Positions 181-39,708 of a stretch of DNA of 39,708 bases are shown here, piece after piece (position 1 is the stretch's first letter; the number at the start of each line of letters is the position of its first letter). Below the pieces are notes generated by a model. It saw only the letters and a program-made list of their open reading frames with translations. It was not told the origin of the DNA and made no database searches. The translations under genes were made by a program, and so were the position numbers. Location: IMG/VR virus record IMGVR_UViG_3300045988_140580; one strand, 5' to 3'. The stretch is from a virus.

Positions 181-1263
181 TCACGGGTAACTCCATGTTA
201 CTCGGTTGTCTGTGGAGTGTGTGTAGTATTTCAGAGTAGTTTCTATACTACTGTGACCCATCAGTTTGCTTACTCTCATAACGTCTACATGTTTCTCAGT
301 TATGAGTAGGGTAGCAAAAGTATGTCTCATGTCGTACAGGTGGTGTCCTCTACCCAGTACGGCATGGGTATACTTTTTGAATCGCATATTTACATTATCG
401 ACACTCATATAACCATACTGGCTCTTGAAGGAATAGAAGATATTATCCTTTGGGAGCCTTTTTATATTACTTACTAACCACTTACCATACTGCTCTTTGT
501 CTATCGGTACTATCCTATAACTGCTATCCTGTGTCTTCATCCCATCCTGTAGTTTTCCTCTGAATCCCAGGGATTTGTTGAAGTTCACATAGTTTTCCGT
601 AACATCTTCCTTGGTAAGCGCGAGTATTTCCTGTGGTCGTGCCCCAGTTATCATACCGATTACTATGTATATTTGGTAGACTAGGGGAAGCTTAGTAGAC
701 AAAGTTTTTTTATCTAGCAGCTTACTGACTTCCTCACTGGAGAATGTACGTATGTGTCTTTTGGGTTTACCCTTGATGGTCCTTATGGCACCTCTGCTTG
801 TCATTGGATTATTATCAAGGTATCCCTCGTATACCGCGGTTTCCAGTATAGCTTTGAAGTTCTTTCTCCATCTTGACAGGGTAGAAGTAGCGTAGCCATG
901 GGAAGCCAGACCTAGGAAATACCTATTGATATCCTGTGTAGTCAGATCATAAAACTTTGTCTTAGCTAACTTACTGCCTACTACATGTTTGTTATAGAAA
1001 TGCTTGATACCATTTAAGGTAGACTCACGATACACATTTTCCTTCAGTTCTATGAAGTGTTCCCAATATTCCTCTATGGTAGTAGGGGTGAAGTACTTTA
1101 TGTTTGTTCCTCGTACCTTATCAAAAAACTGCTCAACTTCCTGTCGGGTATCACACGTTTTACTAACTCGCTTACCATTACCGATGCATATAGCACCTTT
1201 GAATTTTCCATTTGGTGTCCTTGTTATAGAACCAGTACCTTTTTCTCTTCTTATTCTTTTCAT
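181..1263 (-). CDS. int: Tyrosine recombinase / phage integrase
   Basis: 360-aa ORF. The C-terminal catalytic region reads HDMRHTFATLL...LMGHSSIETTLKYYTH (R..HxxR..Y tyrosine recombinase motifs), and ARPQEILAL supplies the box A arginine. An RBS GAAAGGTGA lies upstream on the minus strand. It is the only large gene on the minus strand. Confidence 0.93.
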   Translation of the reverse strand: MKRIRREKGTGSITRTPNGKFKGAICIGNGKRVSKTCDTRQEVEQFFDKVRGTNIKYFTPTTIEEYWEHFIELKENVYRESTLNGIKHFYNKHVVGSKLAKTKFYDLTTQDINRYFLGLASHGYATSTLSRWRKNFKAILETAVYEGYLDNNPMTSRGAIRTIKGKPKRHIRTFSSEEVSKLLDKKTLSTKLPLVYQIYIVIGMITGARPQEILALTKEDVTENYVNFNKSLGFRGKLQDGMKTQDSSYRIVPIDKEQYGKWLVSNIKRLPKDNIFYSFKSQYGYMSVDNVNMRFKKYTHAVLGRGHHLYDMRHTFATLLITEKHVDVMRVSKLMGHSSIETTLKYYTHSTDNRVTWSYP

Positions 1264-1479
1264 ATATCACCTTTCTTCCCTAGATACTTTTAGTTGTTCC
1301 CTCTATGGGTAGGATAGCATAAGGGGACACAGTATTCCAGATGAAAATTGGAGAAAAATTTGTGATACTAGATTGATTGAGATCTCCTCAGATTTTCCCC
1401 CGTGTACCCCCTGGACAACAATATAAAATAAAATAAACTTAATTATATACTATTATATGTCTGAACAGAAACACATAAG

Positions 1480-1525
1480 GTCTCACGGTATCCCTGATAA
1501 TATCAAGGTTTACACGGTATCCAGT
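1480..1525. repeat. Direct repeat of CACGGTATCC(C/A)(T/G)TG at about 30-bp spacing (candidate protein-binding sites near int)
   Basis: tctCACGGTATCCctg at about 1480 and tttaCACGGTATCCagtg at about 1510. Confidence 0.4.
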
Positions 1526-1722
1526 GTCTATCTATTGCTTTTATTTATGATACACACGGAGCCGTTGTATTGATGTTATCAGTTTTTTTAATTAGTTGAA
1601 TGAGTCAACTATATGGATACTCAAGGATATATGATGGAAACATTAAGATATATGAACGAATGTTCATGTGATATTAAAAATTGCTCTATAAAATATCTGT
1701 CTATATACATTAGAAATACTTA

Positions 1723-1875
1723 TCACGTACATCAGAAATATTTATAAGATACATCAATGTTACTTATAATATACATTGGAAATACTTATAACATACATAT
1801 TCCAGGCATGGAGTATACTTATGACAGACACAGGAAATACGTATGATAGACACAGAATATGTTGGGATACATGGC
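1723..1875. repeat. Iteron-like array: about 7 imperfect tandem copies of a 22-bp unit GAAATACTTATNANNTACATCA
   Basis: Units begin at about 1723, 1745, 1767, 1789, 1811, 1834 and 1855, for example GAAATACTTATCACGTACATCA, GAAATATTTATAAGATACATCA, GAAATACTTATAACATACATAT and GGAAATACGTATGATAGACACA. The array is AT-rich and non-coding, and lies between int and the repressor module. Confidence 0.7.
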
Positions 1876-1944
1876 TTATGGTCTATAGCATATTGCTATT
1901 AATCTAAGCATCGAAAGAAGATAAAGCATTAACTAATTTTCTTA

Positions 1945-2337
1945 TTACTGTTTTGAGCGTATATACATAAAAGTACCAATAAGTAATATGATTCCGATAA
2001 TGATATTAAGAGATAATAAATAAGCTGTTTCATTTTTTAATTTATTAACTTCAGATTCTAATTGTTTTATTTTGTTATAATTTTGCGTTATTGTTTTTCC
2101 CTGTGCTTCATTTATTAATACTGTTTCAGATAAAACCTCATCAATACGCTCATTTGGCTGTAATGTTTGGGGATCTATATGCGGTTGAAAATTTCTATAT
2201 TTATCATTATACCACTGAACAAATGCATTATGTGTACCTCGGTCCCATGTATCATTTTTCCAGTCGTAGGCCATTATTTCCATAACAGAGACAAAGAGTA
2301 AACATAAAGAAATTATAATTTTGAAGAATATCTTCAT
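1945..2337 (-). CDS. Secreted/membrane protein (N-terminal signal peptide or TM, coiled coil, C-terminal TM). Candidate lysogenic-conversion or superinfection-exclusion protein.
   Basis: The ORF track gives 1945..2382 from a TTG start. The more plausible start is ATG 2337 (MKIFFKIIISLCLLFVSVMEIMA), preceded by GAGGTG. The C-terminal hydrophobic segment is LLSLNIIIGIILLIGTFMYI. It is co-oriented with the repressor and int. Confidence 0.5.
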   Translation of the reverse strand: MKIFFKIIISLCLLFVSVMEIMAYDWKNDTWDRGTHNAFVQWYNDKYRNFQPHIDPQTLQPNERIDEVLSETVLINEAQGKTITQNYNKIKQLESEVNKLKNETAYLLSLNIIIGIILLIGTFMYIRSKQ

Positions 2338-2434
2338 TTTATACACCTCAATTATATGTAAATTATAAGAATAGTATAGCAAAATATAGGTATCCTTAGA
2401 ATACTTTTGTATTCTTTAGATACCCATATTTTAG

Positions 2435-2611
2435 TTATTGCTTTTTATTTTCAGTTATTAGAATATTTTCATTATCATTAACATATTTTGTAATATGTCG
2501 TGTTAAATATCCGCTTACAGTGTCGCCTTTTATTTTTAGTATTTTTTGAAATTTGTTTTTTAGTTCACTATCTATTCTTATTTGCATGAACTTTTCTTTT
2601 GTGTCTTTCAT
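2435..2611 (-). CDS. Small ribbon-helix-helix (Arc/Mnt/CopG-like) DNA-binding protein, 58 aa. Candidate lysogeny repressor. Not in ORF track (under 60 aa).
   Basis: Hand translation of the minus strand gives MKDTKEKFMQIRIDSELKNKFQKILKIKGDTVSGYLTRHITKYVNDNENILITENKKQ*. The pattern is a beta-strand (FMQIRIDSEL) with alternating hydrophobics, helix A, a G-D-T-V-S-G loop (the G-x-S/T-x-S RHH hallmark) and helix B. An RBS AGAAGGGAAG lies 9 nt upstream. It is divergent from the early operon, with operators between them. Confidence 0.6.
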   Translation of the reverse strand: MKDTKEKFMQIRIDSELKNKFQKILKIKGDTVSGYLTRHITKYVNDNENILITENKKQ

Positions 2612-2637
2612 ATAATATCACTTCCCTTCTAATATTC

Positions 2638-2665
2638 ATTATAGCAGGTTTTTTAAGTTGTGACA
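2638..2665 (-). promoter_or_regulatory. Sigma70-like promoter for the RHH gene (minus strand): -35 TTGTCA (2665..2660), 16-nt spacer, -10 TATAAT (2643..2638)
   Basis: Read on the reverse complement. The -35 overlaps the operator half-site at 2660-2676. Confidence 0.45.
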
Positions 2666-2676
2666 ATGTAGTAAAA
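2660..2676. promoter_or_regulatory. Operator-like site O1 (half-conserved): TGTGACAATGTAGTAAA
   Basis: Shares CAATGTAGTAA with O2 and O3. Overlaps the -35 of the leftward promoter. Confidence 0.45.
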
Positions 2677-2692
2677 AAAAACAAATTAGGTA

Positions 2693-2721
2693 TTGACTTT
2701 GTCACTACATTGTAGTAATAT
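2693..2721 (+). promoter_or_regulatory. Sigma70-like early promoter: -35 TTGACT (2693-2698), 16-17-nt spacer, -10 TAATAT/AATATA (2715-2721)
   Basis: Near-consensus hexamers read directly. Operator O2 lies inside the spacer. The promoter is upstream of the first early gene (ATG 2822). Confidence 0.6.
2700..2717. promoter_or_regulatory. Operator O2: GTCACTACATTGTAGTAA (perfect 6+1+6 palindrome ACTACA-T-TGTAGT)
   Basis: Palindrome read directly. Located in the spacer of the early promoter. Confidence 0.6.
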
Positions 2722-2780
2722 ATACTCAACGAAAGGGAACATATCAAAATATAAAGTTCCCAAAAATTTTTAACTTCTTA

Positions 2781-2797
2781 TGTCACTACAATGTAGT
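2781..2797. promoter_or_regulatory. Operator O3: GTCACTACAATGTAGTA (palindrome ACTACA-A-TGTAGT) in the early-transcript leader
   Basis: Second perfect copy of the O2 palindrome, about 25 nt upstream of the first early gene's RBS. Confidence 0.55.
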
Positions 2798-2821
2798 ACA
2801 ATCAAGAAAGGAAGGGTAAAC

Positions 2822-3193
2822 ATGGAAGAAGTAACAAAGGAAATGATAATGGACGCTTTGACTGATTATGTTTCTGAATTGTCTGAAGAAGACACAATTA
2901 CACTATGGAATGCCTATTGTGAAGACTACAACCAGATGCACCGATTCATTTATCTAAATGATTTTGACGAACTCGACAGCGTTTTTAAGTCACCTTCAGA
3001 AGCTTTGTATATGGCACAGTATTCACCGTATCACATCAACGACAGATATTTTACTTACAGTTCTTTTTGTGGGCTTATGTCTTTCAGTTTTCTTACAGAT
3101 GAAAATAGTCCGGTAGTAGTTGATGAATTAGTTAGCTACCTGATGAGTCAAAGAGCTGTATATATTTTAGTAAAAAGTCAGTTAGAAAGGTAG
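2822..3193 (+). CDS. Early protein, strongly acidic (about 22 D/E vs 7 K/R in 124 aa). Candidate DNA-mimic / anti-restriction protein (by composition only).
   Basis: ATG 2822 with RBS AAAGGAAGGG; the ORF-track start at 2780 is less likely. It is the first gene of the host-transcribed operon, the position of T7 gene 0.3 (Ocr). Confidence 0.6.
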   Translation: MEEVTKEMIMDALTDYVSELSEEDTITLWNAYCEDYNQMHRFIYLNDFDELDSVFKSPSEALYMAQYSPYHINDRYFTYSSFCGLMSFSFLTDENSPVVVDELVSYLMSQRAVYILVKSQLER

Positions 3194-3202
3194 GTAATTA
3201 CT

Positions 3203-3418
3203 ATGACACAGAGAATCACGGAAAAATTTTTAGATAACATGATTAAAAACATCAATAACAGAACTGGCAGAAAGTACTTCTTAGAATATGCATACGGTGG
3301 GGTAAAACTGGCGCATACATACGAAAACGGCGGATACACAGATGAAAGTTATAGAATGACAAAACGAGAAATGTATTATGTCCTAGATGCTTTACAGCAC
3401 TTCATCAATCACAATTAG
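3203..3418 (+). CDS. Hypothetical early protein (71 aa)
   Basis: ORF with RBS GAAAGGTAGG. No recognisable motif. Confidence 0.5.
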   Translation: MTQRITEKFLDNMIKNINNRTGRKYFLEYAYGGVKLAHTYENGGYTDESYRMTKREMYYVLDALQHFINHN

Positions 3419-3426
3419 TGGATTTT

Positions 3427-3480
3427 ACAGGGTGCCTTAGAAAACTAAGGCACTCGATAAAGGCCACTAGAAGCCTTTAG
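3427..3480 (+). other. Conserved intergenic RNA element, copy A: two stem-loops (GUGCCUUAG-AAAA-CUAAGGCAC; AAAGGC-CACUAGAA-GCCUUU)
   Basis: Paralogous to 4177-4230, with compensatory base changes that preserve both stems. Confidence 0.6.
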
Positions 3481-3507
3481 GCAGTTAGGTAGAAAGGAAG
3501 TAATATC

Positions 3508-3963
3508 ATGACAAGAATTAGCCTGTATCACGTAGAGTTAGTAAAAGATAGCAGCCATAACTATAACGTCTCAAGAGATATGTCTAGCCCGTATAATGTC
3601 ATTCATATGCTTGTAAATACATTGCATCTGGACAAACGCAACGTAGAAAATTTTGGCATGATTGCAGTTAATACGCAAAACAAATTAATAGCTGTACAGA
3701 TTTTAACGCAAGGATCTATCGATACATCTATAGCAAGTACTAGAGAAGTCTTTCAATGCGCTTTACTGCATAATGCACGTGCCATAATACTATTCCATAA
3801 TCATCCTTCCGGGAATTCTGGTCCTTCTAAAGAAGATATAGCAATAACTAAAAGGATAGTTAAAGCTGGGGAACTACTAGGTATTCCGGTATTGGACCAT
3901 GTGATTATAGGTAGTGAGAACGATTACTTTAGCATGAGAAGTGAGGGAATTATCAATGACTAA
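3508..3963 (+). CDS. RadC-like JAB/MPN-domain protein (DUF2466 family)
   Basis: Motif ILFHNHPSGNSGPSKEDIAITKRI matches the RadC-like HNHPSG...PS.xDxxxT signature. 151 aa. Confidence 0.85.
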   Translation: MTRISLYHVELVKDSSHNYNVSRDMSSPYNVIHMLVNTLHLDKRNVENFGMIAVNTQNKLIAVQILTQGSIDTSIASTREVFQCALLHNARAIILFHNHPSGNSGPSKEDIAITKRIVKAGELLGIPVLDHVIIGSENDYFSMRSEGIIND

Positions 3964-4180
3964 CAAAGAATTAGCAAGAAAAATATACGATACGGGGCGT
4001 AATGAAACAACTACAGGAAACTGGGTTTTTCACATAAGTGAGTTAGATGGCAGGACGCCAGAAGAAGGTATGTATATCCTGTTAGATGAGTATAGAGAAG
4101 ACATTTTAGACATAACGTGTACAGATACAGAACTGGATATCATTTTCGCATTAGCTGTTTGTCCTTATTTTCAAGAGTGA
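3956..4180 (+). CDS. Hypothetical early protein (74 aa)
   Basis: ATG 3956 preceded by GAGGGAA. It overlaps the end of the RadC-like gene. Confidence 0.5.
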   Translation: MTNKELARKIYDTGRNETTTGNWVFHISELDGRTPEEGMYILLDEYREDILDITCTDTELDIIFALAVCPYFQE

Positions 4181-4230
4181 ATTTAACAGAGTACCTTAGA
4201 TAACTAAGGTATTCGATTAAGTCCACTAGT
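4177..4230 (+). other. Conserved intergenic RNA element, copy B: GUACCUUAG-AUAA-CUAAGGUA(U); UAAGUC-CACUAGU-GACUUA
   Basis: Same architecture as copy A. The loop CACUAG is conserved while the stems co-vary. Confidence 0.6.
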
Positions 4231-4264
4231 GACTTATCACATGTAACCAGAAAGGATGATACAT

Positions 4265-4846
4265 ATGTTAGCACAGGAAATTTTAAAAGTATTAGCACTC
4301 GATATGACTGAAAAAGAAAAAGTAGAAAAAATCCAAAAACTATGCACCGATGATATTTATGTACACACATGTAGCAAGCCTGTAGGCAATCGGTTTAAAT
4401 TCATACAGAAAGAGTGTAAGAAGGCTAAAAGACCTTGCTTAACAAAGGTACACAGATCGGAAAAATATGGCCTAGTCTGGACCGATGCTTATGTATTGTG
4501 CACGTTTAGAGATGATACATTTCCTACTGATTTATTAGCAACAGAAAAGGAAAAACTAAATGTAGACAATGTTTTAAAGAGTGTAGGTAATGATAAAGCC
4601 AATGCAAGTGTTGAATACAAGGACGTAAAAGCACGGCTTGCTTGTCTATCGACGAAAAAAGAAAAAGAAGCGGACATAATCGAAATAGGGGATTCAATTT
4701 TCAAGACTTGCTTAGTTGACAAAGTTTTCAAATTTTATGGCCTGGACAAACTGAATTTACATACAAAAAATAGCTGTGTTGCATACGGTTATACAGAAAA
4801 TGGTGATGCATTCTTAATTTGTCCGATGAAAAAGGAAGTTAAATAG
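4265..4846 (+). CDS. Hypothetical early protein (193 aa), Cys/Lys-rich, no recognised motif
   Basis: ATG 4265 with RBS AGAAAGGA at correct spacing; the track start at 4256 is too close to the RBS. It is the last gene before the terminator hairpin. Confidence 0.55.
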   Translation: MLAQEILKVLALDMTEKEKVEKIQKLCTDDIYVHTCSKPVGNRFKFIQKECKKAKRPCLTKVHRSEKYGLVWTDAYVLCTFRDDTFPTDLLATEKEKLNVDNVLKSVGNDKANASVEYKDVKARLACLSTKKEKEADIIEIGDSIFKTCLVDKVFKFYGLDKLNLHTKNSCVAYGYTENGDAFLICPMKKEVK

Positions 4847-4951
4847 ATATGAGTACAAAAGAGAAGATAGAAGGATATGCATACTACATCATACTTTGTC
4901 TCTTGTGCATGTTGTGTGAATACCTAGATAAAAACTTAATATAGTTAAGCT

Positions 4952-5005
4952 AAAAATAGCGTGTACTTAGAAATTTTTAAGTCACTCTAAGTACACGCTA
5001 TTTTT
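4952..5005 (+). terminator. Perfect 19-bp inverted repeat (AAAAATAGCGTGTACTTAG ... CTAAGTACACGCTATTTTT) with a 16-nt loop, followed by a T-run. Intrinsic terminator and/or RNase III-type site.
   Basis: Arms at 4952-4970 and 4987-5005 read directly. Located between the early genes and the RNAP gene. Confidence 0.75.
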
Positions 5006-5035
5006 ATATATAAATGCATGAACAAACGTTCTGTT

Positions 5036-5058
5036 AATTGTCCCACTATTAAGAGAAA
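5036..5058 (+). promoter_or_regulatory. Phage-RNAP promoter P1 (variant): ATTGTCCCACTATTAAGAGAAAT, followed by a degenerate copy ATTTGTCCCTTATTTAGAAAGG
   Basis: Member of a 4-copy family sharing ATTGTCCCACTAT(T/C)AAGAGA. Immediately upstream of the RNAP start codon. Confidence 0.6.
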
Positions 5059-5095
5059 TATAATTTGTCCCTTATTTAGAAAGGTGGTTAAAAAT

Positions 5096-7636
5096 ATGTA
5101 TACGCTGGAACAACAATTGGAAGTTGAAAAAATGTATAAGACAGTAGCGGAAGATTCCTTTTTTTCAAAATTGAATCAAGACAAGCAAGAAGGTAACTAT
5201 TCTAGAAGTTCCATAGGTAAAGGAATTATAAAGCAGGTTATGGCACCTTTTACAAAAAACATACACATAAAACTACAGGAAGTCACACTGAGTAAAAAAG
5301 GAGTAAAACCTAAATATTATGCAGTTCTCAAAAAATTCATGGATTACTATATAAACGACATGGATACTTTTGTTAATACATTAGCATTACAAACAATAAA
5401 GGTAGTAGTAAACAACATTGCTACCAATAGAAAAAACTGCAATATGATAGCTAGTGTTATAGGTACAGAACTACAAGATGAAGTAGAATTATATGCCTTT
5501 ATGCATACTGTCGAACATGCAGAAACAAGATATAGTAAAGACATAAATAAACGTGTAGGGAGGAGTTTCAAGAAGAATTTTATCTTACATGCATATCAAG
5601 GGAATGATTTTGTATTTCCTAAATTCAAAAAAACGGAGCTTACAGCTTTAGGCATGGAAATGATAGCTATACTTACAGAATCAGTAGACTTTTTCTACAT
5701 AGCTATGACAGGCGAAAAAGGTTTATTGGAGTTACATCCTAGTGATATGTTTTTACAAGCTGTCATAAAGTCGGAAGAAAACATTATGTCTAGGACGGTT
5801 AAATTAGTACCAACTATAATACCTCCTAAAGCATGGAAAGGAATATTTGAAGGAGGGTATTATGGGGCGTTAGGTATCCAAAATAGATTTATGCGTCATC
5901 ATCCCTATATGAAAGGCACAAAAACATTAAGTAGATACCTGGCACGGCTTAATGAATTAGACCTAACACCTATTTACAGAGCAGTTAATAGGATCCAGAA
6001 CACTGCCTATCATATCAATAGTTATATGCTCGATGTAGTAGGTTCTATATTAGAAAGCGGTGGAAATAGGGCAGGTATACCCCAGATGAAACCATATGAA
6101 AAACTTCCGGCTTTTCCGTATGGAGACAAAGAGATAGAAGAGTCTGAGGAATTGCAAGTGCTATTTAAAGAACATAAGAAGAAAATGATAACCATGATAC
6201 ATAAAGAAAACCAGAGACAAGGCAAGGCGCTAAGGTGCACCATGGTGTACAAATTAGCTAAAGATTTTAGCAGATTTGAGACAATATACTTCCCAATGAA
6301 TATTGATTTTCGAGGGCGTATATATCCCATTCCTACGGGTCTTAATCCACAGGGGGATGATATGACAAAAGGTTTACTGGAATATGCTTTTCCTAAAGCT
6401 GTGTCTAGTGAAGATTCCTTGCAATGGCTTATGATTCACGGTGCAGGGTTAGCAGGGCACGATAAAATTTGTCTGGATGAACGTGTACAATGGGTACAGG
6501 ATAACAAAGATAACATTGTAAATAGTGTCGATAATCCCATAGGGTACACATGGTGGCAAGAGCAGGATAAACCTTTCCAGTTCCTAGCGTGGTGCAGGGA
6601 ATACGTCAATGCCTTAGCTTATATGTTTGCACACAATGGCTCTTTAATAGGGTTCGAGTGTCATTGTGTAATAGCATATGACGGTACCTGCTCTGGACTT
6701 CAGCATTACTCTGCATTACTGAGAGATCCTGTTGGTGGCAGTGCGGTAAATCTGGTGGACCATGATAAGCCTAGTGATATTTATCAGGAAGTAGCAAATA
6801 AAGTTCTGATATCAGTAGAGAATGATTCTCATAATGGCACTATAGAAGATACAGACAGAAAAGGAAATAAGATACCTGGTACAAAAGCAATAGCGGAAGC
6901 ATGGCTTGCACATGGTATCACACGGAAAGTTTGTAAACGCCCTGTAATGACACTAGCCTATGGATCTGGGCAATATGGTTTTGGGGACCAGATTTTTGAA
7001 GATACGACAAAAGACAATCCCTTCTTTAATGGTGTAGGTGACTTCAGGGCAGCTAGATATATGGCTAGTAAGGTATGGGAGACTGTACAGACAACTGTAG
7101 TTTCTGCTACACAGGGCATGTCTTTTCTTAAGGAGTTAGCTAATGAGTTAGCGTCTGATAATATGCCTGTAGAATGGATTACACCGTTGGGATTGCCTGT
7201 ACAACAGATGTATCTTGATTTACATACGGAATGCTTCAGGTTACGGTTTGGTGGTGCCAGTGTGCGCTATCGTATATATGTTACAGAGCCGAAGGAAGGG
7301 GAAGACACAGACAAAAAGAAGCAGGTGTCTGGTGTTGCTCCTAACTTCATTCACTCCCTAGATGCTACTCACTTGATGATGTCTGTTAATGCTTGTGAGA
7401 ATGTGTCTAACTTCACTACGGTCCATGATTCATTTGGTACGTCATTAGGTGAAGCAGAGGAGCTGAGAGAAGTTATTAGACAGCAAATGGTTAAATTGTA
7501 TAGTGAAAATGAGCCACTAAAAGATTTTAAAGCTCATGCTGAAGAATTGCTAGGCAAACATATTGATATAGATTTACCCCGAAAAGGCACATTAGATATC
7601 AATTCTATTTTGTCTAGCAAATTTGTGTTTCACTAA
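5096..7636 (+). CDS. T7-like single-subunit DNA-dependent RNA polymerase
   Basis: The 846-aa protein has TTVHDSFGT (T7 RNAP motif C HDSFGT) and a palm/fingers region similar to T7 gene 1. The start is ATG 5096 after AAAGGTGG; the track's upstream ATG 5018 would place promoter P1 inside the gene. Confidence 0.95.
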   Translation: MYTLEQQLEVEKMYKTVAEDSFFSKLNQDKQEGNYSRSSIGKGIIKQVMAPFTKNIHIKLQEVTLSKKGVKPKYYAVLKKFMDYYINDMDTFVNTLALQTIKVVVNNIATNRKNCNMIASVIGTELQDEVELYAFMHTVEHAETRYSKDINKRVGRSFKKNFILHAYQGNDFVFPKFKKTELTALGMEMIAILTESVDFFYIAMTGEKGLLELHPSDMFLQAVIKSEENIMSRTVKLVPTIIPPKAWKGIFEGGYYGALGIQNRFMRHHPYMKGTKTLSRYLARLNELDLTPIYRAVNRIQNTAYHINSYMLDVVGSILESGGNRAGIPQMKPYEKLPAFPYGDKEIEESEELQVLFKEHKKKMITMIHKENQRQGKALRCTMVYKLAKDFSRFETIYFPMNIDFRGRIYPIPTGLNPQGDDMTKGLLEYAFPKAVSSEDSLQWLMIHGAGLAGHDKICLDERVQWVQDNKDNIVNSVDNPIGYTWWQEQDKPFQFLAWCREYVNALAYMFAHNGSLIGFECHCVIAYDGTCSGLQHYSALLRDPVGGSAVNLVDHDKPSDIYQEVANKVLISVENDSHNGTIEDTDRKGNKIPGTKAIAEAWLAHGITRKVCKRPVMTLAYGSGQYGFGDQIFEDTTKDNPFFNGVGDFRAARYMASKVWETVQTTVVSATQGMSFLKELANELASDNMPVEWITPLGLPVQQMYLDLHTECFRLRFGGASVRYRIYVTEPKEGEDTDKKKQVSGVAPNFIHSLDATHLMMSVNACENVSNFTTVHDSFGTSLGEAEELREVIRQQMVKLYSENEPLKDFKAHAEELLGKHIDIDLPRKGTLDINSILSSKFVFH

Positions 7637-9333: not shown

Positions 9334-9804
9334 ATTGGTGGCATACATAAGAATAAACGTGGTACACGTTCAAAGTATGAAGAGACACTTTTACAGAATC
9401 TAAAAGACAGAAGTGTCTCTTTTGCATATGAGCAGTATTCTTTGAAGTACACAGTGGAACATACATATACACCTGATTTTGTACTACCTAACGGCATTAT
9501 TGTAGAAGCCAAAGATGGTGAAGGTGGGTATGCTCATGTTGGCAAAAGCTCATACTACAGGGGTTCTCTGGATTCCGCAGCCAGAGGGAAGATGTTGCGT
9601 ATCAAGAAGCTGTATCCGAACTTAGATATACGCTTTGTCTTCCGAACAGATCAGACACTGCATAGTCTGGGAAAAAAATGTAGTACATGGTGTAAAGAAC
9701 ATGGTTTCAAGTATCACATAGGTGACTCCATACCAGACAGTTGGCTGAAAGAAGAGCCTAAGGATACAGAAGGATTACTACTGAAAAAGAGAAAGGAGAA
9801 ATAG
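9334..9804 (+). CDS. T7 endonuclease I-like Holliday-junction resolvase. Start codon uncertain (no in-frame ATG/GTG/TTG upstream of the conserved N-terminus).
   Basis: HTYTPDFVLPNGIIVEAKDG matches T7 gp3 YTPDFLLPNGIFVETKG. The reading frame is open from 9316, and the upstream peptide (GGIHKNKRGTRSKYEETLLQNLKDRSVSFAYEQY) aligns with the T7 gp3 N-terminus. The track starts the ORF at TTG 9442. Confidence 0.8.
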   Translation: MGGIHKNKRGTRSKYEETLLQNLKDRSVSFAYEQYSLKYTVEHTYTPDFVLPNGIIVEAKDGEGGYAHVGKSSYYRGSLDSAARGKMLRIKKLYPNLDIRFVFRTDQTLHSLGKKCSTWCKEHGFKYHIGDSIPDSWLKEEPKDTEGLLLKKRKEK

Positions 9805-9807
9805 TTA

Positions 9808-10155
9808 TTGTTAAAGTTTAGAGACAGAGAAGATACAGAATTTGTACGTGTCTATTGGCATGATTTAAATGGTCTGTCTGTCCCTGGACTGCTTAAGGAG
9901 ATTAGGAGAACTAAGGGTGACTTTACTGCTCCATATCACATGATTATTACTAAGGATGGTACGATTCATCATATTAGAAATCTGGAAGCGGTTGCAGGGT
10001 ATGAACTGGCAGACAATGAGTTTGGAGTGCACATCTTAGTTGATTCCATTAGTAGAGATTTAATGACTAGAGTACAGCGGTTATCTCTGGAGGATGTTCT
10101 AAATGATATCAATGTAAAATATCCAGATATACCTGAAGAAAACTATTATGAATGA
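9808..10155 (+). CDS. T7 lysozyme (gp3.5, amidase_2/PGRP)-like protein, C-terminally truncated and lacking the Zn ligands. Probable RNAP-regulatory, non-catalytic homolog.
   Basis: Collinear with T7 gp3.5 (FRDREDTEFVRVYW / LKEIRR..G...YHMIITKDGTI / EFGVHILVD), but it ends about 35 aa early. T7 positions H122/K128/C130 are absent. TTG start. Confidence 0.65.
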   Translation: MLKFRDREDTEFVRVYWHDLNGLSVPGLLKEIRRTKGDFTAPYHMIITKDGTIHHIRNLEAVAGYELADNEFGVHILVDSISRDLMTRVQRLSLEDVLNDINVKYPDIPEENYYE

Positions 10156-11740
10156 TAATGTTCCTATTAAAACGCATTTACCGTGTCCGGATTGTGGTTC
10201 TCATGATGCATTAACAGAGTATTCAGATGGGCACACATATTGTTTCTCATGTCAGACAGTCAGGAATACTTTAGCGCGTGAAAGTAAATTGATTGACATA
10301 AACTCTTTGTCTTTCTCACCACTAAAAAAGCGCGGTATTATGACAAACACATGTGAGAAATATCATTATTACACAGGATATCACAACGGGAAACCTGTTC
10401 ACGTAGCTTGCTATTATGACGACACAGGGGAGCTGATAGGTCAGAAAGTACGCTATCCAGATAAGACGTTTGAGACAATCGGAAAGATTTCTAAAAGGTT
10501 TTTCGGACAGGAGCTGTTCTCTAGCAGGGGAAAGTTAGTTATCACTGAAGGTGAAATTGACTGTCTTACTGTCTCACAGCTGCAGGGGAATAAGTATCCA
10601 GTTGTGTCCATCCCAACAGGTGTTGTGTCTGCTAAAAAAGTGATAACGCATAACATGGAGTGGCTTTCACAGTTCGATGAAATCATTCTGATGTTCGATA
10701 TGGATGAGCCGGGGAGAAAAGCCGTAAAAGAATGTGCAGGCCTTCTCAAAGGCATTAAGGTAGCTAATTTACCTATGAAAGATCCTAACGAATGTCTGTT
10801 AAATGACAAAGGTCAAGCTGTGATAAATGCTATATGGAATGCGAAACCATACAGGCCGGATGGAATAGTTAATGGTGCTGAACTATGGGATATTGTAGAT
10901 AGTGAGGAAGACACAAAAGGGTACAGTTATCCTTGGGATATTCCATTAAATGACATGACACTCGGTATGCGAAAAGGCGAACTGGTAGTGATTACCGCAG
11001 GGACAGGCGTAGGTAAAACTACATTTGTCAGACAACTTATGTATGAATTAGGTGTCAATCAGGGCCGGAAGATAGGCTGTATGATGCTAGAAGAAAATAT
11101 TAAACGTACAGCAATCGGCCTTATGTCTATCCATACAGGTAATAGATTGCACTTAAATAGACATGCAATATCGGAAGAAGAATATCATAAAGCATTCGAT
11201 GAGACACTGGGTACAGGTCACTATGTCTTATACAATCATTTTGGTTCACTCGATGGTGACAACTTACTCAACAAAATACGATACCTGGCTATCTCAGAAG
11301 AGTGTGATTTCATAGTTTTAGATCATGTGTCTATAGCTGTTTCGGGTCTTGAAGGAGATAACGAGCGGAAACTCATAGACTATCTTATGACACAAATGAG
11401 GAGCATAGTAGAAGAAACTGGTGTAGGTATGTTGGTTATCAGTCACTTAAGGCGACCAGATACATCGCAACAATCTCATGAGGAAGGCGGAATAACGTCT
11501 TTGTCTCAGTTAAGAGGTTCTCATGCTATTTCTCAGTTATCAGACATAGTTATTGGCTTGGAGAGAAACCAACAGGATGAGGATGAACATATGAAAAACA
11601 CCATAAAAATACGGGTTCTTAAGAATCGGTTCAGTGGCGATACTGGAATAGCCGGATACCTAGAGTACAGTAAGAAGACAGACAGATTAGAAGTAAAAGG
11701 AAAGAGGGAGAATAATAATGATGATGAAGCAGAGTTTTAA
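10148..11740 (+). CDS. T7 gp4-like primase-helicase
   Basis: Zinc ribbon CPDCGSHDALTEYSDGHTYCFSCQ, TOPRIM ITEGEIDCLTV, Walker A GTGVGKTT, and helicase motifs. Confidence 0.93.
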   Translation: MNDNVPIKTHLPCPDCGSHDALTEYSDGHTYCFSCQTVRNTLARESKLIDINSLSFSPLKKRGIMTNTCEKYHYYTGYHNGKPVHVACYYDDTGELIGQKVRYPDKTFETIGKISKRFFGQELFSSRGKLVITEGEIDCLTVSQLQGNKYPVVSIPTGVVSAKKVITHNMEWLSQFDEIILMFDMDEPGRKAVKECAGLLKGIKVANLPMKDPNECLLNDKGQAVINAIWNAKPYRPDGIVNGAELWDIVDSEEDTKGYSYPWDIPLNDMTLGMRKGELVVITAGTGVGKTTFVRQLMYELGVNQGRKIGCMMLEENIKRTAIGLMSIHTGNRLHLNRHAISEEEYHKAFDETLGTGHYVLYNHFGSLDGDNLLNKIRYLAISEECDFIVLDHVSIAVSGLEGDNERKLIDYLMTQMRSIVEETGVGMLVISHLRRPDTSQQSHEEGGITSLSQLRGSHAISQLSDIVIGLERNQQDEDEHMKNTIKIRVLKNRFSGDTGIAGYLEYSKKTDRLEVKGKRENNNDDEAEF

Positions 11741-12188
11741 GGTTCCTGTTCATGATTATGGGATTACATTAACAGAAATTCCAGATGAAATCACTCTGTA
11801 TTTTAACATTGGAAATTGTGAGTGCCATTGTAAAGGTTGTCATAGTGATTTTCTGTGGGATACACATTTAAATACGCCGATGAAAACGGTAGATGAAATT
11901 TTGTCTATTGTCAAGAAATACAAAGAGGATGTAACAGCTATTGTGTTCATGGGTGGCAATCGTAATGGTATGGATTTTGAAGAATTTGCAGATAAAGTGT
12001 TGAAGCCTGTGTCTGAATTTATGGATGTTGGTATCTACATGGGAGCTTGGGATGCTAATGATTTATTCGTTGCATCTCAATATTGCCGATGGATTAAAGT
12101 AGGCTGCTACAAAGAAGATTATGGTGGACTAGATTCTCCAGCTACCAATCAGCTGTTTTTTGAAGTACAAAATTATAAATTCTTATAG
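11718..12188 (+). CDS. nrdG: Anaerobic ribonucleotide reductase activating protein (NrdG-like radical-SAM activase)
   Basis: GNCECHCKGCHSDFLWD matches the NrdG CxxxCxxC cluster and context (T4 NrdG ...FFQGCPHHCPGCQNPETW). About 156 aa, like T4 NrdG. Adjacent to NrdD. Confidence 0.7.
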   Translation: MMMKQSFKVPVHDYGITLTEIPDEITLYFNIGNCECHCKGCHSDFLWDTHLNTPMKTVDEILSIVKKYKEDVTAIVFMGGNRNGMDFEEFADKVLKPVSEFMDVGIYMGAWDANDLFVASQYCRWIKVGCYKEDYGGLDSPATNQLFFEVQNYKFL

Positions 12189-12197
12189 GTGGTAACA

Positions 12198-12458
12198 ATG
12201 ACGTTTACATTACATGTTATTAAAGGTTGTGCATACTGTGATGCTATTTTGTCTTTATATCCATCATTGGTAAAGAGATATCCTAAGTTATATTTCAATA
12301 TGAAATGTGATGAAAGTGCAAATGAGGGTACAGTATATCCATATATTGAAGCATATCATCTTGATGTTGACGGTGTGTATAGAGACAAAAAAGATTCCAT
12401 GCTATACATCAATGATGTTGTAGATTTTGTAGAAAGGAGTCTTAATAAAGGTAAATGA
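12198..12458 (+). CDS. Glutaredoxin/NrdH-like thioredoxin-fold protein
   Basis: CAYC (CxxC) after the first beta-strand. Lies between nrdG and nrdD. ATG 12198 follows AGGTGG. Confidence 0.5.
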   Translation: MTFTLHVIKGCAYCDAILSLYPSLVKRYPKLYFNMKCDESANEGTVYPYIEAYHLDVDGVYRDKKDSMLYINDVVDFVERSLNKGK

Positions 12459-14218
12459 TTTTGAACTTAACTCCTGATCAGATACAGGGGAAGATTGATT
12501 ATATTAAGAAGTATTCACAAGCGTCCAATAGTGCTGATGGTTCATTAGTTGATAGTAATGCTAATGTAGACACAAAAAACATAGGCATTCTGGAAGCGGA
12601 ACTGTATAAGCCAGAGACGATTCAGATTAATAGAGAGATTGTGAAGCAAAAGTTAGACAGCATGTTTCCTGGACTAGGAGCACAGTATATCAAGGACATA
12701 GAAAGTCACTTTATTTATATCCATGATGAAACGTCCTTGCGTCCCTACTGTGCTTCTATTACCTTGTTTCCTTTCCTGCTAAATGGTACTAAACCTCTGG
12801 GTGGGACAAGCAAAGCACCAAAGAACCTGCATAGTTTTTGTGGATCATTCATTAATCTTGTCTATCAGGTAGCGTCTGGTTTTGCAGGTGCTGTGGCTAC
12901 TGTCGAATTTCTGCTATATTTTGATTATTTTGCGAGAAAGACATATGGCAGTGCTTACATAACTACTAACAAGAAAGAGGTAGAACAGGCCCTACAGGGT
13001 GTTGTATATGCCTTGAATCAGCCTGCTAGTGCACGGGGAAATCAGAGCGTGTTCTGGAATATCTCTGTATTAGACAAGCATTATTTTGAGCACCTATTTG
13101 GTACATTTCATTTTCCGGATGGTTCACAGGCTATGTATTATGGTTCATTCCATGATTTGCAGGAGCTTTTTATGGAGTGGTTCAGGAAAGAGAGGGAGAA
13201 AGAGCTACTGACATATCCCGTTTTGACAGCTTCTATGCTTATCAACGATGAGGGCGTTCCTGTAGACACAGAATTTGCAGAGATGTGTGCTGAGGAAATG
13301 TCCAAAGGTCTGAGCTTCTTTGTCTATGAATCACAAAGTGTTGACTCACTTGCTTCCTGTTGTCGATTGCGCAATGAACTGTCTGACAATACGTTTAGCT
13401 ATACACTGGGAGCAGGTGGGGTATCTACAGGTTCCATACAGGTTATTACACTGAACATGAACAGACTCGTACAACAGAAAGACCATACTGTGTCTGACAT
13501 TGTAAAGCGTGTTCATAAGTACCTTCTGGCATACAGGGCAGTGATTGAAGATTACATGAATAGTGGTTTGTTGCCAGCGTATACAGCTGGGTTTATTAAT
13601 CTGGACAAGCAGTTTCTTACTGTTGGTATCAATGGCATGTTGGAAGCTTCTGAGTTCCTGCACGGTAAACCAGACATAGACTTCTATAGAGATACATTGA
13701 AGACTATCTACTTGTTGAATAAAGAGGATGGTCAAAGATACAAAGTTAAATATAATACGGAGTTTGTCCCCGCAGAAAATTTAGGTGTGAAGAATGCAAA
13801 GTGGGACAAAGAAGATGGCTTAGTGGTTCCTAGAGACTGCTATAATTCCTATTTCTTTCCTGTAGAGAGCAGTGAGTACAGCATTATAGACAAACTTGAT
13901 ATGCATGGTTTACGTACTACAGCGTTTCTTGACGGGGGAGCAGCTTGTCATCTTAATTTGGCGCAGTTATTGACTAAGAAACAGGCGTATCAACTAATGT
14001 GTCTTGCAGGTAAGAAGGGCGTTAATTACTGGACATTTAACTGCTTAATGACAATTTGTGACGATTGTGGATATATTGATGTGAACACGGAAAGGCAGTG
14101 CACGAAATGTGGAAGTACCAATGTTGGTTATGCCACTCGTGTCATTGGCTATCTCAAACGTATTGATAGTTTTTCCACAGCACGTCAGAAGGAAGCTTTT
14201 AAACGACATTATACTTAA
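12455..14218 (+). CDS. nrdD: Anaerobic (class III) ribonucleoside-triphosphate reductase NrdD
   Basis: C-terminal zinc ribbon CDDCGY...CTKCGS followed by the glycyl-radical motif ATRVIGYL (RVxGY). Size 587 aa, adjacent to the NrdG-like gene. Confidence 0.75.
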   Translation: MILNLTPDQIQGKIDYIKKYSQASNSADGSLVDSNANVDTKNIGILEAELYKPETIQINREIVKQKLDSMFPGLGAQYIKDIESHFIYIHDETSLRPYCASITLFPFLLNGTKPLGGTSKAPKNLHSFCGSFINLVYQVASGFAGAVATVEFLLYFDYFARKTYGSAYITTNKKEVEQALQGVVYALNQPASARGNQSVFWNISVLDKHYFEHLFGTFHFPDGSQAMYYGSFHDLQELFMEWFRKEREKELLTYPVLTASMLINDEGVPVDTEFAEMCAEEMSKGLSFFVYESQSVDSLASCCRLRNELSDNTFSYTLGAGGVSTGSIQVITLNMNRLVQQKDHTVSDIVKRVHKYLLAYRAVIEDYMNSGLLPAYTAGFINLDKQFLTVGINGMLEASEFLHGKPDIDFYRDTLKTIYLLNKEDGQRYKVKYNTEFVPAENLGVKNAKWDKEDGLVVPRDCYNSYFFPVESSEYSIIDKLDMHGLRTTAFLDGGAACHLNLAQLLTKKQAYQLMCLAGKKGVNYWTFNCLMTICDDCGYIDVNTERQCTKCGSTNVGYATRVIGYLKRIDSFSTARQKEAFKRHYT

Positions 14219-17176: not shown

Positions 17177-17761
17177 GTGTTGCCTAAAGTAGAACTAATT
17201 GCTATTACACCTAACTATATTCAGTTAATTCAGCGGGCTATGGGAGAGTGCTATCAGCGCCCTGTAGGAGAAAAGACGGTAAAGAAAGCTATTCAAGCAG
17301 GGCATTTGTCTGTACTTGAACATTGCTCAGCAACGTTTGAGATTCAGTGCTCTATTTCTGTGTTGCTACAACTGACCAGACACAGACATTTTTCCTTTAC
17401 AGTACAGAGTTCTAGGGGATGCGAACTTACACACTTTCACAAGACTGGCATTGAGTTTTTAGATAGTCTGCTGATAGAGCATATGGCTGATTATAAGTAT
17501 GCTGTAGAAGATGGTTGTAAGAATAAAGAAGATGCTGCTTACTTATTGCCTAAAGCCGCTGAATATAAATTACTTATTACAGGAAACTTCAGGGCATGGT
17601 ATGAGTATTTGCCTAAGCGGATGTGCAAGAGAGCACAGAAGGAACATAGACAAATGGCAGAACAGATTCAGAAACTGTTAGCAAAGACAGCACCAGAGAT
17701 TTTTGATAGAGATTTTATGAATTGCGATAGATGCACTGAAAAGAGTTGTTCGTTCTCATGA
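17177..17761 (+). CDS. thyX: Flavin-dependent thymidylate synthase ThyX
   Basis: ThyX signature RHRHFSFTVQSSR (RHRx7-8S). GTG start after AAGGGGG. Confidence 0.8.
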   Translation: MLPKVELIAITPNYIQLIQRAMGECYQRPVGEKTVKKAIQAGHLSVLEHCSATFEIQCSISVLLQLTRHRHFSFTVQSSRGCELTHFHKTGIEFLDSLLIEHMADYKYAVEDGCKNKEDAAYLLPKAAEYKLLITGNFRAWYEYLPKRMCKRAQKEHRQMAEQIQKLLAKTAPEIFDRDFMNCDRCTEKSCSFS

Positions 17762-39627: not shown

Positions 39628-39708
39628 ATCACCGTCGTCTTTGGCACATCCATTGCGACCATCTTCGGCGTATTCCTCATTCCGATTCTGTTCATCATCG
39701 TAGAAAAT
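39628..39708. repeat. Right copy of the 81-bp terminal direct repeat
   Basis: Identical to 1-81. Confidence 0.9.

Follow-up and report, generated by a model that had tools for sequence, protein, structure and literature searches.

The stretch of DNA examined here (the window; 39,708 nucleotides, IMG/VR virus record IMGVR_UViG_3300045988_140580) is a complete 39.6-kb temperate T7-like phage of the gut Negativicute Megasphaera. On its minus strand, at 2435-2611, lies a gene for a 58-amino-acid (aa) ribbon-helix-helix (RHH) protein, which is divergent from the host-type promoter of the early operon. This protein is very probably the immunity (prophage-maintenance) repressor of the phage, and it is predicted to act on repeated sites over the early promoter. 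The pairing of this repressor with cognate operators is strongly supported by comparison with related phages: the repeated motif is specific to the type of RHH protein, an XRE-type protein takes the place of the RHH protein in some genomes, and sister contigs without the RHH gene at this position are also without the operators.

T7-like phages were long regarded as strictly virulent. The temperate members so far have been mostly proteobacterial and are thought to use MarR-like regulators. If the assignment made here is correct, a widespread human-gut prophage of an anaerobic Negativicute runs the T7 programme through a different and very small repressor.

The RHH protein and its putative operators

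The minus-strand open reading frame (ORF) for the protein, which an earlier sequence-only reading of the window had picked out, was confirmed at 2611-2435 (product MKDTKEKFMQIRIDSELKNKFQKILKIKGDTVSGYLTRHITKYVNDNENILITENKKQ). AlphaFold2 modelling with a 32-sequence alignment gave a monomer model with a pLDDT of 90, in which an extended N-terminus is followed by two helices; a model made from the single sequence was weak (pLDDT 66) and was replaced by the alignment-based model. The modelled elements are a beta-strand at about residues 8-14 (FMQIRID), helix 1 at 15-28, a turn comprised of G29, D30 and T31, helix 2 at 32-46 and a short helix 3 at 48-57. An N-terminal beta-strand and two helices joined by a short G-x-S/T turn, the arrangement of the RHH (MetJ/Arc/CopG) superfamily, are all present in the model, and the RHH architecture with a G-D-T loop that had been predicted was borne out.

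A word-indexed search with the single protein found two near-identical sequences, and an exhaustive HMMER search followed by a profile search was then used. The exhaustive search recovered a family of 50-60-residue proteins with the pattern x-I-R-I-R-I-D...G-D-T-x-S-G-(Y/F)-L, the profile of which matched the RelB RHH domain 2k29 at E 6e-5. Each of the Pfam families RHH_1, RelB, RHH_9, DUF6290 and RepB-RCR_reg was matched by 7 to 12 of the 32 homologues, ParG and Arc were also among the Pfam families matched, and two family members from Megasphaera carry the NCBI label 'ribbon-helix-helix protein, CopG family'. The window protein alone gave matches below threshold: to Pfam RelB at 17.4 bits (E 0.004; gathering score 22.4), to the PHROG 'Arc-like repressor' at E 3e-4, and to RelB and DinJ entries of the PDB at E 0.35-0.9. 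By its modelled fold the protein is a member of the RHH superfamily, nearest in sequence to RHH domains of the RelB/DinJ/CopG type. Profile matches to Arc, MetJ and CopG had been expected; the RHH fold, the RelB match and the CopG labels agree with this, but the Pfam Arc family (PF03869) was matched by only 1 of the 32 homologues, and the earlier description of the protein as 'Arc/Mnt-type' does not hold.

The intergenic region between the RHH gene and the first early gene spans 2612-2821 (210 bp), and holds two divergent promoters, both of which were assigned as sigma-70-type consensus matches only. The rightward host-type early promoter, PR, was found in a consensus scan as TTGACT(2693)-17-TAATAT(2721) on the plus strand (2693-2721). 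It aligns with TTGACA-17-TAAGAT of the relative L016 and with the TTGACA-17/18-TAnnAT promoters of all relatives, and no other good sigma-70-type promoter precedes the early operon, whose last gene is that for the phage RNA polymerase. The leftward RHH promoter, PL (2638-2666, minus strand), is TTGTCA-17-TATAAT with a TG extension; it is the best consensus match in 1200-5100 (11/12), and L016 shows an equivalent TTGTCA-17-TATAAT. The divergent transcription of the RHH gene from the early promoter, as first proposed, is supported by this arrangement. Directly 3' of the RHH stop codon lies a terminator-like hairpin followed by UAUAUUUUG (2380-2433, minus strand), with an RNA folding energy of -26.4 kcal/mol (z -9.0; 0 of 200 shuffles as stable). 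Given this strong hairpin, the RHH gene is a self-contained promoter-gene-terminator cassette.

Three palindromic operators of the form ACTACA-W-TGTAGT had been proposed for the intergenic region, and two of them proved to be perfect palindromes. O2 (TGTCACTACATTGTAGTA, 2700-2717) fills the spacer of PR and touches its -10 hexamer. O3 (TGTCACTACAATGTAGTA, 2781-2798) falls within the early leader, covering about +53 to +70, and immediately precedes the first early gene's ribosome-binding site; the leader is about 93 nt long, and O3 is 24 nt before the ATG at 2822. O2 and O3 are two perfect copies of TGTCACTACAWTGTAGTA, 81 bp apart, and no further perfect copy of this 17-mer is present in the 39.7-kb window. 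The third site, O1 (AGTTGTGACAATGTAGT, 2656-2672), is half-degenerate: a perfect TGTAGT (2667-2672) lies just upstream of the PL -35 hexamer, and a degenerate TGACAA (2661-2666) overlaps that hexamer, as the overlap first described requires. With the right half only intact, O1 fails the 17-mer search at three mismatches. It nevertheless matches TGTNNNNACAWTGTAGT with one mismatch, and by manual count is identical at 15 of 17 positions to the direct-repeat operator TGTAGTGACAATGTAGT of L016.

The repeats are concentrated in this region. The 17-mer was matched four times in the window at no more than three mismatches, against 0.39 matches expected, and none of 100 shuffles reached four. Five copies of TGTAGT or ACTACA fall within the 210 bp of the intergenic region, compared with 35 over the rest of the window (39.5 kb; Poisson P ~3e-6), and the intergenic region is the densest 210-bp segment of the genome for this hexamer. 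Each subsite seems to span about 10 bp, with a spacing of 11 bp from one to the next. Scans of IMG/VR for the two operator 17-mers returned single matches only, several of them on giant-virus contigs, and these were taken as chance.

Putative repressor types and operator motifs among related phages

Eight loci with an identical or 98%-identical protein have DNA that is about 98% identical, and were uninformative on conservation. More can be read from L016-L018, in which the RHH protein is 67% identical to that of the window and its beta-strand, F-L-Q-I-R-I, presents the same F-x-Q-x-R face. These loci have the same synteny and, like the window, are integrated beside an RND pump gene. Their intergenic region aligns with that of the window (a three-way alignment had a mean column identity of 71%), and L016-L018 carry five TGTAGT hexamers at three positions equivalent to those of the window.

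The operators of L016 are, however, direct repeats (TGTAGTGACAATGTAGT) and not palindromes. In O2 and O3 the central four bases are reverse-complemented with respect to the window (AGTG in L016, CACT in the window) and the TGTAGT subsites are retained; stated otherwise, the left 10-bp subsite TGTAGTGACA of the window has become TGTCACTACA in L016. As the same sites are direct repeats in a relative with a 67%-identical RHH protein, the conserved feature, as judged from these alignments, is the content and spacing of TGTAGT-type subsites and not palindromy. Conservation of the palindromes wherever the same small ORF occurs, on which the sequence-only reading had staked its case, is upheld for the motif and fails for palindromy as such. 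A two-fold-symmetric RHH dimer could read a flipped, pseudo-symmetric subsite equivalently, with two dimers placed about 11 bp apart. The possibility that the palindromes act as RNA hairpins was rejected, as a 13-nt palindrome leaves a 1-nt loop and the L016 sites are direct repeats.

The spacing between operators differs between the two phages: the distance from O1 to O2 is 44 in the window and 34 in L016 (10 bp apart), and that from O2 to O3 is 81 and 74, respectively (7 bp). A phase-locked loop between O2 and O3 is therefore not supported. The site next to PL has one good and one degenerate hexamer in both the window and L016, and O1 is for this reason predicted to be a weaker site, probably an autoregulatory one for the RHH gene.

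More distant relatives carry other types of RHH protein, each with its own motif. The types differ at the alternating positions 8 and 10 of the beta-strand, which presumably face the DNA, and R12 is nearly invariant. Type A, to which the window belongs, has F and Q at positions 8 and 10 and the repeat motif TGTAGT. Type B (VRINIRLE) has R and N and the motifs CACATG/GTGAGT, for example TCACATGTGAGTACATG in L023; type C (AVIRLRLT) has V and R and the motif ATGTAGCYACA; and type D (SYIRFRID) has Y and R and the motif GTTAYAACATGTKRTAAC. In every type one copy of the motif lies inside the spacer of a TTGACA-17/18-TAnnAT promoter, and most relatives have further copies of their own motif, one directly ahead of the first early gene's ribosome-binding site and one at the RHH promoter. 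In a cross-comparison, TGTAGT was absent from three of the four type B regions (L009, L010 and L012) and present as one stray copy in the fourth (L023), and the type B motifs were absent from the type A regions. This co-variation of the beta-strand residues with the repeat motifs points to binding of the repeated subsites by the paired beta-strands of an RHH dimer.

In two relatives, L040 and L046, the RHH slot holds an XRE-type protein (HTH_3, E 4e-17), alongside an integrase of the same family and a small hydrophobic-tailed protein, and L040 has its own AACCAAAYGGATGT repeats in TTGACA promoters. Two others, L014 and L035, have RNA polymerases 89-97% identical within the clade of L015. In these the terminase gene is followed by non-coding DNA and then directly by the early promoters, and neither an integrase nor an RHH gene is present within the 14 kb and 8.7 kb examined, respectively. 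Their promoter hexamers (tandem promoters) and flanks align with those of L015, but the spacers are without a shared motif and the third site is missing.

Several rearrangements were observed at these loci. In L019 (4640-4720), a relative of L016, the DNA between O1 and O3, PR and O2 included, is deleted and O1 is fused to the O3 flank; this looks like a recombination between operator repeats that left a prophage without its early promoter. In L001 (about 9790-9830) the 123-aa first early gene is missing, divergence starts right after O3, and the gene for a 71-aa protein follows the operator directly, an indication of a mosaic boundary where the regulatory module ends. The L016 lineage carries a gene of the AntA/ANT antirepressor family just downstream of the RNA polymerase gene (L016 205-1011, L017 483-1295), of which the window has no equivalent. 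In L041 (2625-2969) and L046 (4084-4371), both on the plus strand, a small DNA-binding protein of the HTH_Tnp_1/Brinker-like kind is the product of the first early gene to follow the operators; it is absent from the window, and a Cro-like or antirepressor function is possible for it. The terminase gene of L035 is apparently interrupted by a 192-aa ORF (840-1418), which might, as a guess, be a homing-endonuclease-like insertion.

Proposed mechanism, alternatives and known systems

In the proposed mechanism, RHH dimers would bind TGTAGT-type subsites that are paired into operators of about 17-19 bp, the likely stoichiometry being a dimer of dimers on each operator. Occupancy of O2 would block the host RNA polymerase at PR and shut off the early operon. 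With the early operon silent no phage RNA polymerase would be made, and the middle and late programme would stay silent as well. O3, about 55 nt downstream in the leader, may act as a roadblock, as a loop anchor or cooperative partner, or be what is left of a second (tandem) promoter of the kind found in L015 and L021. Binding at O1, on the -35 hexamer of PL, would probably give negative autoregulation at a high level of repressor.

The alternative that survives best, albeit with a small probability, is that the RHH protein is an accessory or secondary regulator like Arc and Mnt in the immI region of P22, and that the role of primary repressor falls to a host factor or to a further phage protein whose fold is not recognised. 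The RHH proteins of P22 are indeed secondary and not primary immunity regulators, and several early and middle proteins of the window are without a family match. An accessory role does not, however, sit easily with the position of the RHH operators, which are on the one host-type early promoter that precedes the phage RNA polymerase gene. Only three genes lie on the integrase strand (those for the RHH protein, a 130-aa protein and the integrase), and the RHH protein is the only recognisable regulator among them; across sister phages, the presence or absence of the slot tracks that of the integrase and the operators. No other recognisable DNA-binding regulator, MarR or winged-helix included, was found among the window ORFs scanned.

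It is also very improbable that the repeats are by-products of promoter-segment duplication, or sites for the integrase, an excisionase or a host protein, and not sites for the RHH protein. The sequence shared by O2 and O3 does extend past the core into the flanks, promoters are duplicated in tandem in relatives, and the L019 deletion, by joining O1 to O3, indicates that the repeats recombine. Against this, O3 is a direct repeat in L016, such that neither palindromy nor RNA structure is what is kept, and O2 and O3 carry the same four-nucleotide central difference from the window with the TGTAGT subsites retained. The motifs moreover differ from one RHH type to another, and they are lost from relatives that have no RHH gene but keep the promoter flanks; with regard to the integrase, its gene is more than 1.3 kb away and the attachment-site core is at the genome ends.

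A third alternative, that the protein is an antitoxin-like or CopG-like autoregulator of its own leftward unit only, possibly with the membrane protein encoded downstream, and not a lysogeny repressor, draws on the RelB, DinJ, ParD and TacA antitoxin RHH domains that are its nearest sequence and structure matches, on the label given by JGI to one homologue (antitoxin component of a RelBE/YafQ-DinJ module) and on the overlap of O1 with the protein's own promoter, but is highly unlikely: the protein, at 58 aa and with nothing beyond a 10-residue helix 3, is too short for the long C-terminal toxin-binding extension expected of RelB/DinJ-type antitoxins, the downstream gene lies beyond a strong terminator-like hairpin and its product is small, variable, hydrophobic at both ends and without a match to a toxin family, the best-matching sites (O2 and O3) are on the opposite early promoter and leader, and sister phages carry an XRE repressor in place of the RHH protein. 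A toxin-antitoxin module was rejected on the same grounds of length, neighbour, hairpin and operator position.

Several observations nevertheless weigh against the assignment of the RHH protein as the immunity repressor. PR and PL are known as consensus matches, and the window protein by itself scores under the Pfam gathering cut-off for RelB. In the switch region, all loci that have the identical protein differ little in their DNA (about 98-100% identity), and conservation within type A rests on two diverged relatives, L016 and the weaker case of L020. The pentamer TGTAG is common to types A and C although their beta-strand residues differ, such that the residue-to-base code is not clean, and promoter-segment duplication is another way in which repeats can come about at promoters. 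The sequence examined covers 14 kb for L014 and 8.7 kb for L035 (the L035 contig being 39.5 kb), and the absence of the module is shown at the syntenic position only. Finally, the RHH protein has no cleavage domain, and no mechanism of induction was found.

The module had been described as a lambdoid-style switch, and the likeness to lambda CI/Cro extends to its layout: the repressor gene is divergent from and reads away from the lytic operon, graded operators are shared over both (consensus) promoters, and the integrase is on the repressor side. It does not extend to the components, as no Cro-like regulator, CI-type cleavage domain or induction route was found in the window. The early operon does not begin with a conserved Cro-like gene, and the 58-aa protein has an RHH fold only, unlike the repressors that combine a helix-turn-helix (HTH) domain with a RecA-stimulated S24 self-cleavage domain. 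The sites are also spread over promoter and leader, and do not form a tripartite OR.

In how it functions, the module resembles the promoters controlled by Arc and Mnt of P22. Those proteins control an antirepressor within a secondary immunity system, the primary repressor being of CI type, whereas the RHH protein of the window is apparently the only regulator and is placed on the master early promoter. The direct or inverted use of subsites recalls the omega repressor. However, the omega repressor (pSM19035) and CopG are plasmid copy-number and partition regulators, and omega repeats are 7-bp heptads, compared with subsites here that are apparently about 10 bp long and placed 11 bp apart. Especially close in function is F55 of SSV1, a 55-aa RHH lysogeny regulator expressed in the carrier or lysogenic state, which binds a repeated 11-nt motif in the early promoters and its own promoter (PMC9608457). 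F55 differs in belonging to an archaeal virus with archaeal transcription machinery and in having no detectable sequence relationship to the window protein, and SSV1 is without a virus-encoded RNA polymerase cascade.

The rarity of temperate T7-like phages that the sequence-only reading had supposed is overstated, as such phages have already been described: according to PMC10134795, which cites Boeckman et al. 2022, a MarR-like regulator is found in Pasto, HTVC019P, LUZ100 and a prophage of Pseudomonas putida KT2440, and is proposed to keep the phage RNA polymerase from being expressed during lysogeny. The window phage shares with these a T7-like genome, a single-subunit RNA polymerase, an integrase near the left end and a small repressor proposed to act against the RNA polymerase. 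In the MarR-type phages a winged-helix regulator is co-transcribed with the integrase and proposed to act at a promoter next to the RNA polymerase gene. In the window, by comparison, the corresponding slot holds the RHH gene in its own terminated cassette; the host-type early promoter that its product is proposed to control lies about 2.4 kb before the RNA polymerase gene, and the phage has a Negativicute and not a proteobacterium as its host. T7-like prophages of Megasphaera have been mentioned in passing as BLAST hits (PMC7693777; bioRxiv 10.64898/2026.02.16.706137). No paper joining Autographiviridae, ribbon-helix-helix and integrase was found in the literature searched, which left most subscription journals outside its coverage. 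Within that literature the RHH switch in a T7-like phage looks undescribed, as had been suspected; the RHH solution to T7-like lysogeny looks to be the new part, and temperate T7-like phages themselves are already known.

A wider reading, possible but as a whole rather doubtful, is that the 58-aa protein is the sole phage-encoded regulator for lysogeny, in a minimal, Cro-less and cleavage-independent switch; that Megasphaera phages freely exchange its cassette, which comes in at least four RHH specificities and in an XRE version; and that loss of the cassette gives virulent derivatives. If true, a modular immunity cassette would predict heteroimmune groups, and the sister contigs without cassette and operators would illustrate how virulent T7-like phages can arise from temperate ones. 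As repressor-promoter parts, the cognate RHH-operator pairs would be compact and apparently orthogonal; placed ahead of a phage RNA polymerase, they could serve as genetic tools for gut anaerobes. The basic concepts of phage regulation would be unchanged.

Early leader, neighbouring genes and phage genome

Between O2 and O3 the early leader contains a hairpin, GGGAAC-15 nt-GTTCCC, followed by AAAAATTTTT (2735-2771, plus strand), with a folding energy of -8.2 kcal/mol (z -3.0). Hairpins with other stems, GCGGTA/TACCGC and GTAAGG/CCTTAC among them, occupy the same place in L016, L020 and L023; AAAAATTTTT follows the hairpin in the window, L016 and L023, and the transcript start region CAACGAAAGG is also conserved. 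As a similar hairpin was seen by eye in the RHH-less L014, the leader hairpin is probably outside repressor control. It is probably an element of mRNA stability, processing or attenuation and not part of the repression. A scan of 1200-3000 against Rfam gave nothing meaningful.

The early operon under PR (2822-7636, plus strand) encodes proteins of 123 aa and 71 aa, a RadC-like JAB protein, and proteins of 74 aa and 196 aa, and then the phage RNA polymerase (5096-7636). The first early proteins (123 aa and 71 aa) match no DNA-binding family and are not conserved among relatives. The RadC-like JAB protein (3508-3963, plus strand) was assigned through Pfam at E 2e-40; as an inactivator of the repressor it is a speculative candidate only.

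Downstream of the RHH gene is the gene for the 130-aa protein (1945-2337, minus strand), the hydrophobic N- and C-termini of which are read as a putative signal peptide and membrane anchor. It matched no family, toxin families included, in the scans made, and PADLOC found no defence-system match for the RHH protein or its neighbours. The slot between the RHH gene and the integrase holds a different small protein in each lineage (130, 83, 72, 149, 61 or 131 aa), most with hydrophobic membrane-like segments, and it looks like a slot for lysogenic conversion or superinfection exclusion. Between the integrase gene and the 130-aa ORF is a 680-bp non-coding stretch that includes 4.3 tandem copies of a 22-bp unit, ATACATCAGAAATACTTATAAC (1705-1798), in which no homology to the non-coding region of the RHH-less L014 was detected.

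The temperate, T7-like character of the phage is evident from its gene order, its single-subunit RNA polymerase, its integrase and its integration. The RNA polymerase has about 34% identity to T7-group polymerases over 99% of its length, and the window also contains T7-type genes for a primase-helicase, endonuclease I, DNA polymerase A and terminase, in an Autographiviridae-like arrangement. The integrase, a tyrosine recombinase that had been taken as a sign of lysogeny, is encoded at 181-1263 on the minus strand (Pfam Phage_integrase, E 7e-16). An 81-nt attachment-site (att) core at 1-81 is repeated exactly and in direct orientation at 39628-39708, 39,627 bp away, and corresponds to the 3' end of a host gene for an RND efflux pump, encoding the C-terminal end of the pump.

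The integrated state is seen in several contigs (31-194 kb) in which the integrase end adjoins the RND pump gene, followed by the TetR, ThiW and FtsY genes, and integrated copies beside the pump gene occur in several metagenomes. In these the core is also at the end of the pump gene. In L007, a 40-kb contig, the terminase comes next after the integrase and a single copy of the core separates the two, as in a phage-only form. The temperate nature claimed at the outset from the integrase is well supported by these observations.

Megablast with the first 8 kb and tblastn with the RHH protein gave no match to GenBank phage records. The exact 58-aa protein is indexed in 104 blocks of a public sequence collection, and Megasphaera sp. 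AM44-1BH harbours a relative with an RNA polymerase 82% identical. The phage also carries the anaerobic ribonucleotide reductase NrdD with its activase-like partner NrdG, and a ThyX thymidylate synthase (11718-14218 and 17177-17761, plus strand), which agrees with a strictly anaerobic host. The RNA polymerase gene is broken into two ORFs in two integrated copies, at 4723-7263 in L006 (337 + 494 aa) and at 1384-3932 in L017 (485 + 347 aa), and these are possibly decaying prophages or assembly errors.

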